A DNA stretch of 64,000 bases from a virus (IMGVR_UViG_2939142107_000001:26843-90842); one strand, 5' to 3'. Numbered from the stretch's first letter, positions 29,239-30,433 are shown. Notes: a model not told the origin generated them from the sequence alone. Numbers and translations are program-made.

Positions 29239-30433
29239 GGAAGGTGCGAATAAGCGGGGAAATTCTTCTCGGCTGACTCAGTCATTTCATTTCTTCATGT
29301 TTGAGCCGATTTTTTCTCCCGTAAATGCCTTGAATCAGCCTATTTAGACCGTTTCTTCGCCATTTAAGGCGTTATCCCCAGTTTTTAGTGAGATCTCTCC
29401 CACTGACGTATCATTTGGTCCGCCCGAAACAGGTTGGCCAGCGTGAATAACATCGCCAGTTGGTTATCGTTTTTCAGCAACCCCTTGTATCTGGCTTTCA
29501 CGAAGCCGAACTGTCGCTTGATGATGCGAAATGGGTGCTCCACCTTGGCCCGGATGCTGGCTTTCATGTATTCGATGTTGATGGCCGTTTTGTTCTTGCG
29601 TGGATGCTGTTTCAAGGTTCTTACCTTGCCGGGGCGCTCGGCGATCAGCCAGTCCACATCCACCTCGGCCAGCTCCTCGCGCTGTGGCGCCCCTTGGTAG
29701 CCGGCATCGGCTGAGACAAATTGCTCCTCTCCATGCAGCAGATTACCCAGCTGATTGAGGTCATGCTCGTTGGCCGCGGTGGTGACTAGGCTGTGGGTCA
29801 GGCCACTCTTGGCATCGACACCAATGTGGGCCTTCATGCCAAAGTGCCATTGATTGCCTTTCTTGGTCTGATGCATCTCCGGATCGCGTTGCTGCTCTTT
29901 GTTCTTGGTCGAGCTGGGTGCCTCAATGATGGTGGCATCGACCAAGGTGCCTTGAGTCATCATGACGCCTGCTTCGGCCAGCCAGCGATTGATGGTCTTG
30001 AACAATTGGCGGGCCAGTTGATGCTGCTCCAGCAGGTGGCGGAAATTCATGATGGTGGTGCGGTCAGGCAAGGCGCTATCCAGGGATAACCGGGCAAACA
30101 GACGCATGGAGGCGATTTCGTACAGAGCATCTTCCATCGCGCCATCGCTCAGGTTGTACCAATGCTGCATGCAGTGAATGCGTAGCATGGTTTCCAGCGG
30201 ATAAGGTCGCCGGCCATTACCAGCCTTGGGGTAAAACGGCTCGATGACTTCCACCATGTTTTGCCATGGCAGAATCTGCTCCATGCGGGACAAGAAAATC
30301 TCTTTTCTGGTCTGACGGCGCTTACTGCTGAATTCACTGTCGGCGAAGGTAAGTTGATGACTCATGATGAACCCTGTTCCATGGCTCCAGATGACAAACA
30401 TGATCTCATATCAGGGACTTGTTCGCACCTTCC
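29239..30433 (-). mobile_element. IS5 insertion sequence, intact, 1195 bp, TTAG target-site duplication
   Basis: terminal inverted repeats GGAAGGTGCGAATAAG at 29239 and its complement ending 30433; TTAG at 29235..29238 and 30434..30437. Confidence 0.95.
29385..30401 (-). CDS. insH: IS5 transposase
   Basis: 338-aa [37 protein letters not shown]... recognised as IS5 InsH. Confidence 0.95.

Follow-up and report, generated by a model that had tools for sequence, protein, structure and literature searches.

IS5 in the immC control region

What interrupts the immunity region of the phage-plasmid described here? The DNA analysed, a stretch of 64,000 nucleotides (IMGVR_UViG_2939142107_000001:26843-90842; hereafter the window), is part of a P1-like phage-plasmid that is collinear with P1 (NC_005856) in reverse orientation, window positions 3382-28919 corresponding to P1 31799 down to 1 and 28920-64000 to P1 94800 down to 62632, with a few known variable P1 blocks replaced. 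Reading the window directly, with its repeats and open reading frames (ORFs) listed, we find a 1195-bp copy of the insertion sequence (IS) IS5 at 29239..30433, within the control region of immC and upstream of coi, the gene of the C1 inactivator. Two features identify the region as a P1-type immC: the order cre-cra-loxP-Oc1e-P1coi/Oc1d-imcA-imcB-coi-Oc1c-Oc1ab/Pc1-c1-pacB is kept, and the window contains 14 matches to the C1 operator 17-mer, where chance alone would give 0.31.

Control elements were placed by transferring the GenBank annotation of P1 (NC_005856) onto window coordinates, and the activity of the promoters P1coi, P2coi and Pc1, along with their control by C1 or LexA, is taken from that annotation and from published work (PMC8546580). 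With IS5 and one copy of the tetranucleotide TTAG removed, the region aligns to P1 immC without a gap at the junction (1560/1582 positions identical), so that the comparison with P1 called for by the initial annotation gave a clean reconstruction of the empty site. On the upstream side, cre (27462..28493) and cra (28501..28722) form a minus-strand block (27462..28722) that is transcribed away from the near end of IS5. They are followed by the plus-strand promoter P2coi (28852..28879; NC_005856 41..68; −35 TTGAAC, −10 TAAATT), with the LexA box CTGTATGGATTTACAG embedded in it (28857-28872; NC_005856 46..65) on the cre side of loxP, by loxP itself (28903..28936), by the promoter P4cre (window 28951-28980) and by the minus-strand C1 operator Oc1e (Op99e; 28980..28996), which differs from its P1 counterpart by one substitution. 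Next come the plus-strand promoter P1coi (former P99d; 29057..29086), which contains an operator identical to the P1 copy (Oc1d or Op99d; 29063-29079), and imcA (29125..29238, plus strand), 36/37 amino acids of which are identical to P1. From loxP to the imcA stop, 315/319 bases agree with P1 (98.7%), and both the P1coi/Oc1d and the P2coi/LexA-box stretches match exactly.

Downstream of IS5, all on the plus strand, lie imcB (30456..30551; intact and 100% identical to P1), coi (30517..30726; 69 amino acids, 100% identical), the operator Oc1c inside coi (30554..30570), the bivalent operator Oc1ab (30726-30753), the untouched, autoregulated promoter of c1, Pc1 (30740-30769), and c1 itself (30837..31688), whose 283-residue product is 99.3% identical to P1 C1.100; pacB follows c1 on the minus strand. 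In the imcA-imcB-coi operon, the element thus occupies the 17-bp spacer between the first two genes, right at the imcA stop, and no coding sequence is broken: imcA remains intact because the TAG of the left TTAG serves as its stop codon. IS5 ends 83 bp short of the coi start codon (ATG, 30517) on one side and 160 bp from Oc1d on the other, distances that the initial annotation had given correctly. It had further proposed that the insertion separates coi-c1 from part of its upstream region. By the transferred annotation, this holds for coi more completely than was claimed, both of its promoters, P1coi and P2coi, being cut off from the gene by 1.2 kb of IS5, but it does not hold for c1, which retains its own promoter and three of five local operators, Pc1, Oc1ab and Oc1c being contiguous with it. 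P1coi, P2coi, Oc1d and Oc1e all lie upstream of the element, rather than downstream of 30437, where the initial annotation would have had to abandon its proposal.

The element itself is a bona fide, intact and ordinary IS5 by every structural criterion examined, as first described: its length, its 16-bp terminal inverted repeats and the flanking TTAG repeats were all confirmed by direct reading. The right inverted repeat (IRR; GGAAGGTGCGAATAAG) spans 29239..29254 and the left one (IRL; the reverse complement of GGAAGGTGCGAACAAG) 30418..30433. They are complementary at 15/16 positions, the single mismatch being the canonical one of IS5, and they correspond to the imperfect repeat GGAAGGTGCGAA(T/C)AAG expected at the ends of an element of this length. 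The target duplications at 29235..29238 and 30434..30437 read TTAG on both sides, or CTAA in the orientation of IS5, as expected of an element that makes 4-bp duplications at YTAR/CTAA-type sites. As reference we used the copy in P1 mod749::IS5, which is annotated as identical to J01735 and to which the copy between ynaJ and ynaI of E. coli K-12 is also identical. The window copy differs from it at only 5/1195 positions, three of these substitutions being common to the IS5 allele of plasmid pBL12EC-2, and shares with all of these E. coli copies (J01735, K-12, P1 mod749) the length, the 16-bp repeats, the CTAA/TTAG duplication and an intact transposase gene. This gene, ins5A, is an uninterrupted 338-codon ORF on the minus strand (29385..30401; 326 amino acids, 29385..30365, from the start annotated in RefSeq) without stop or frameshift, carries R8G and R286K relative to the reference, and matches the Pfam families DDE_Tnp_1 (1.9e-35) and DUF772 (3.7e-21). 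In laboratory P1, IS5 is located in mod, and the location found here is new relative to that genome.

Since ins5A reads on the minus strand, the 3′/IRR end of the element points towards P1coi and loxP, and faces P4cre, while the 5′/IRL end, within which the −35 element of a weak ins5A promoter resides (PMC11894529), points towards imcB-coi.

A recent insertion at a recurrently used site

A search with a 24-kb query around IS5 retrieved a group of E. coli P1-like plasmids matching at 100.0% except over IS5. In the IncY plasmid pCARB35_01 (NZ_CP031654.1), the flanks align over 9,239 + 13,567 bp (22.8 kb) without a single mismatch or gap, and the two flank alignments overlap on the only TTAG present, that is, on an empty site. 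Because these IS-free flanks are 100.000% identical and carry a single TTAG, the insertion is very recent, a simple transposition into an otherwise unchanged pCARB35_01-type IncY plasmid; the identical flanks and the empty site likewise rule out an assembly artefact or an old scar. Such recency also implies that the donor IS5 copy was active. IS5 copies with point mutations can be inactive (PMC11677980).

Is this a singular event? Across E. coli and plasmid collections, the identical IS5 junction occurs in only two records, pBL12EC-2 (NZ_CP079777) and NZ_CP141792, both from ducks in China. They share with the window the TTAG, the orientation, a junction that is 100% identical and three diagnostic IS5 positions, but their backbone is 2-3% diverged, c1 is followed by ant-icd rather than by pacB, and the pBL12EC-2 copy of IS5 differs from that in the window at 3 positions. 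Common descent of the two insertions, which we initially preferred from the shared site, orientation and three single-nucleotide polymorphisms, was dropped in view of that divergence and of window flanks that are 100.000% identical to IS-free plasmids. The duck-plasmid IS5 would most simply be a separate hit at the same site. Alternatively, the element may have been transferred between the two plasmid types through a small recombination patch. The annotation of pBL12EC-2 places an internal stop in the ant-type antirepressor gene adjoining c1 (22603-23721); TEM-135, dfrA14, qnrS1 and tet(A) form part of a large multiresistance region on the same plasmid.

Other elements have landed close by. 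An ISKpn26-like element, 91-92% identical to IS5 and flanked by a CTAT duplication at 29199-202, sits 35 bp upstream of the window site in phage phi456, in RCS47, in ~78-87 plasmids of PLSDB and in three IMG/VR contigs. Like the window IS5 it is an IS5-family element, has the same orientation and separates P1coi from imcB-coi; unlike it, this insertion truncates imcA and marks an established lineage (RCS47, phi456 and ~80 plasmids) rather than a very recent event. At the very TTAG used in the window, another IMG/VR contig (L012) carries an ISKpn26-like element in the opposite orientation, so that IS5-family insertions are not strictly bound to one orientation here. In E. albertii, pESA118_2 carries an IS1B that duplicated 9 bp (29183-91), and the alignment to E. 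coli L725 breaks in the same way (query 173-602), an IS1 transposase lying beneath the match. Two more IMG/VR contigs (L010, L011) have the right junction of an ISKpn26-like element at 29214. We do not count this ‘CTTA’ junction as a further independent event, given that the left junctions are out of view and that no PLSDB plasmid has a CTTA junction; it may have arisen from the CTAT insertion by a 15-bp deletion. In RCS47 (L002) and pPK8568-122kb (L008), the ISKpn26-like element upstream of coi has itself been truncated or replaced by an IS1; a dmsABC region now directly adjoins the imcA remnant, with the P1coi side displaced, so that rearrangement by IS has struck this spot a second time.

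Together, these cases amount to several separate insertions and make a 56-bp interval of imcA a recurrent landing place of IS5, ISKpn26 and IS1 in P1-like plasmids. A probe for the empty site found it uninterrupted in 568/702 PLSDB records and in 568/715 complete E. coli genomes with a match, a few of the other matches being CRISPR spacers only. By these counts, roughly every fifth or sixth P1-like plasmid is interrupted at the imcA site; the counts are inflated by clonal sampling and do not represent numbers of independent events. That a single site has been hit repeatedly departs strongly from an even distribution: P1 contains 959 YTAR tetranucleotides, only two of which lie between P1coi and the coi ATG. 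In all IS-bearing loci examined (11/11), coi, imcB and c1 are intact, and none of the records sampled has an insertion inside coi.

Three independent IS5 copies, at window 29208-29238, at K-12 ynaJ-ynaI and at P1 7622-7651, follow a T-rich run that ends in TTAG (TGTTGTTAG, TGTTTTTAG and GATTAGTTAG, respectively), which hints at an extended IS5 target context. Homology between the K-12 and window flanks was considered and discarded, their likeness being confined to the TTAG target and the T-rich context. That IS5-family elements sit in the imcA-coi operon is already known from public records—the RCS47 entry annotates an ‘imcA, part 2’—while our literature search found no paper on the regulatory meaning of such insertions. 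The sole new angle offered here is the 56-bp interval as a recurrent IS target in P1-like plasmids.

Expected consequences for Coi, C1 and the phage-plasmid switch

How might the insertion bear on the decision between lytic growth and the plasmid state? To reach coi, transcripts initiated at P1coi or P2coi would need to run through the 1.2-kb IS5, in the direction antisense to ins5A, once ribosomes have left them at the imcA stop. Rho-dependent polarity classically acts where a stop codon is followed by untranslated RNA. Since imcA, imcB and coi overlap or lie close together in the wild type, and since the RNA following the imcA stop would now be largely untranslated antisense IS5, polarity is to be expected, and it would probably lower Coi synthesis strongly. 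Repressor supply should continue, as c1 keeps Pc1 and its operators. The net result would be more free C1, a higher lysogenization frequency and a weaker C1- and SOS-sensitive derepression through Coi, with the phage remaining viable since lytic growth does not require coi and the antirepressor route via Ant of immI, encoded beyond the window, is independent of coi. We infer that IS5 alters the regulation of the immunity region in this way: the element, which splits the imcA-imcB-coi(-c1) unit, would reduce Coi and bias the phage-plasmid towards its plasmid or lysogenic state. From the arrangement of the sequence, we put the probability of this reading at roughly 60%. Single-cell work regards the C1:Coi ratio as a determinant of cell fate (PMC8546580).

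A new promoter supplied by the element would change this picture. A consensus scan of 28850-30900 returned no replacement sigma-70-like promoter, although the scan is insensitive and missed the annotated P1coi as well, and inspection of 30380-30520 by eye found no hexamer pair with workable spacing that could form an outward or hybrid promoter at the coi-proximal end of IS5. The internal promoters of ins5A and ins5CB are reported to be largely inactive (PMC11677980; PMC11894529). Moreover, in the known cases of activation by IS5 (glpFK, flhDC, fucAO), either the 3′ IB end of the element is proximal to the target (PMC2753651) or ins5A reads into it (PMC11894529). For coi the geometry is a different one: the 5′/IRL end faces the gene, ins5A reads away from it, and IS5 lies between the promoters and coi. 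The window thus resembles bgl, glpFK, flhDC and fucAO in the identity of the element, in its vicinity to promoters and in the AT-rich regulatory region that it occupies, and its IS5 may also carry the bent, IHF-binding region of these systems, but the effect expected on coi is polar rather than activating.

This bears directly on a scenario in which IS5 would make coi or cra-cre constitutive, leading to more spontaneous induction or altered Cre levels, be it because an ins5CB promoter fires out of IRL towards coi or because the bent 3′ end, to which IHF binds, influences the cre promoters of the minus strand, ~260 bp away. The 3′ IB region does activate proximal promoters (PMC2753651), and here it faces P4cre (28951-28980); coi is intact in all IS-bearing lineages examined; and phi456, with its IS in the same orientation, is reported to induce spontaneously at an appreciable rate (PMC10967188). 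That rate is 8.6e-6, a value obtained without an isogenic control, and IB-mediated activation, where known, is phase-dependent and short-range. Activity of the ins5CB promoter is reported to be negligible (PMC11677980), no outward promoter appeared in the consensus scan, and the orientation is not fixed, one ISKpn26-like element being reversed at the same TTAG. On balance, a gain of expression appears very unlikely.

Several observations argue against a pronounced loss of Coi. No intrinsic terminator is evident on the plus strand at the entry into IS5, where only a weak 5-bp hairpin (29271-83) was found and the predicted fold is unremarkable (z = 0.15). Read-through of IS5 in the sense direction is documented, so that the block would not be absolute (PMC11894529). 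Both P2coi and its LexA box are annotations or predictions of the GenBank P1 record. The authors of the phi456 study describe its spontaneous induction as high or appreciable (PMC10967188), which would be at odds with a strong stabilization of lysogeny by the analogous insertion, and the integrity of coi in all IS-bearing loci, together with the want of hits inside it among the records sampled, fits a gene that is still expressed and useful.

A rival view is that IS5 is a neutral passenger at a preferred target within a dispensable spacer, either because enough transcripts read through it or because Coi matters little in nature. The flanks with 0 mismatches over 22.8 kb leave little time for selection to have acted, the use of one TTAG in both orientations and of nearby sites by other IS is typical of a hot spot, and coi and imcB are non-essential (PMC10695390). 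The lack of a convincing plus-strand terminator at the IS5 entry and the sense-direction readability of the element (PMC11894529) point the same way. Against neutrality stand the 1.2 kb of largely untranslated antisense RNA behind a stop codon, a prime candidate for Rho-dependent polarity, the tight packing or overlap of imcA, imcB and coi in the wild type, and the C1:Coi ratio taken as a cell-fate determinant in single cells (PMC8546580). We regard a neutral insertion as possible, albeit not as the outcome to be expected.

At the other extreme, the initial annotation suggested that the insertion might mark a domesticated, plasmid-locked prophage that is unable to enter lytic growth. In its favour, both annotated routes to Coi, the C1-controlled P1coi and the LexA-controlled P2coi, are disconnected, and the pBL12EC-2 lineage with the same insertion has an ant gene with an internal stop and a plasmid loaded with resistance transposons. 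Yet the window flanks are identical to those of IS-free plasmids, and within the window neither loss or truncation of essential phage genes nor decay relative to functional relatives, as would define a defective prophage, was found. In a tblastn comparison with 76 P1 proteins, the essential P1 genes encoded here are all full length and 93-100% identical, including mat, prt, pro, lyz, 5, 6, 7, 24, 25, 26, pmgR, lpa, pacA and pacB; this statement on gene integrity covers the window, with ~30 kb of the element (immI/ant, repL, tail and capsid genes) lying beyond it. Furthermore, knock-down of coi and imcB by CRISPR interference left P1 plating at 0.74-0.82, both genes being listed as non-essential, so that coi is dispensable for plaque formation (PMC10695390). 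By analogy, phi456 with its comparable ISKpn26-like insertion suggests that such an arrangement is compatible with infectious particles: it releases ~1e7 plaque-forming units per ml in biofilm growth and still plaques (PMC10967188), its record naming E. coli MC1061 as host. We therefore consider a locked prophage highly improbable, and this part of the earlier proposal was not upheld.

Does the recurrence of insertions reflect selection? The last 56 bp of imcA could be a selected ‘breakpoint’ of the P1 switch, at which Coi is uncoupled from promoters under the control of C1 and LexA; insertions would then persist because this uncoupling tunes induction towards the plasmid lifestyle, for example by lessening it under SOS-inducing antibiotics. 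Derepression of P1coi and P2coi might, moreover, activate ins5CB, which would tie the mobility of IS5 to induction of the prophage. To us this extension seems unlikely, and either target preference or selection could account for the use of the interval.

If an IS that parts coi from its promoters does dampen C1- and SOS-sensitive derepression, nature would have here a simple means to shift from the phage to the plasmid lifestyle, and one that destroys no gene. If there is no effect, the case adds another recent IS5 transposition into a preferred target. Either way, the window element and pCARB35_01 represent a ready-made isogenic pair, and thus a clean natural experiment on the P1 switch that could show what Coi and the predicted LexA-controlled P2coi contribute to induction. 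A precedent comes from another phage: lambda KH100 is reportedly the original isolate of IS5, in the lambda immunity region. As in the window, a temperate coliphage there carries IS5 in its immunity or control region (PMC11677980); phage and target gene are different, and an immunity gene is disrupted there, whereas no coding sequence is broken here.

Further features of the host element

P1-like phage-plasmids are common in E. coli, with ~13% of complete genomes matching an immC probe, and they also carry resistance genes. Apart from immC, the window departs from laboratory P1 in a handful of blocks. On the minus strand at 23822-25371, the res/mod (EcoPI) block of P1 is exchanged for a YaaC-like gene (Pfam 6.3e-46) and a second gene with a weak nucleoside 2-deoxyribosyltransferase-like match; from its position in the restriction-modification slot, this cassette may be of a defence type. 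At 37662-40529, the pmgT-pmgV/upfM-O/hot block has given way to an OafA-like acyltransferase of 618 amino acids (AT3 + SGNH) and a 146-residue integrase-core fragment of the IS3 family, and lxr and pap are truncated at the borders of this block.

Within 1-3521, cin is an N-terminal remnant with a stop, and the nearby tail-fibre gene (930 amino acids; Gp34_trimer + Gly_rich_2) and chaperone gene (Caudo_TAP) are unlike those of P1; over the portion of the element covered by the window, no invertible C segment of the P1 type can be seen. At 10944-11938, isaA is interrupted by a stop codon, and ~30 bp stand where laboratory P1 has its IS1 and isaB. Finally, some E. coli chromosomes (for example NZ_AP027432 and NZ_CP122938) harbour a CRISPR spacer of ~33 nt that is 100% identical to 30699-30731, at the 3′ end of coi and the edge of Oc1a, the matching feature being annotated as ‘CRISPR’.

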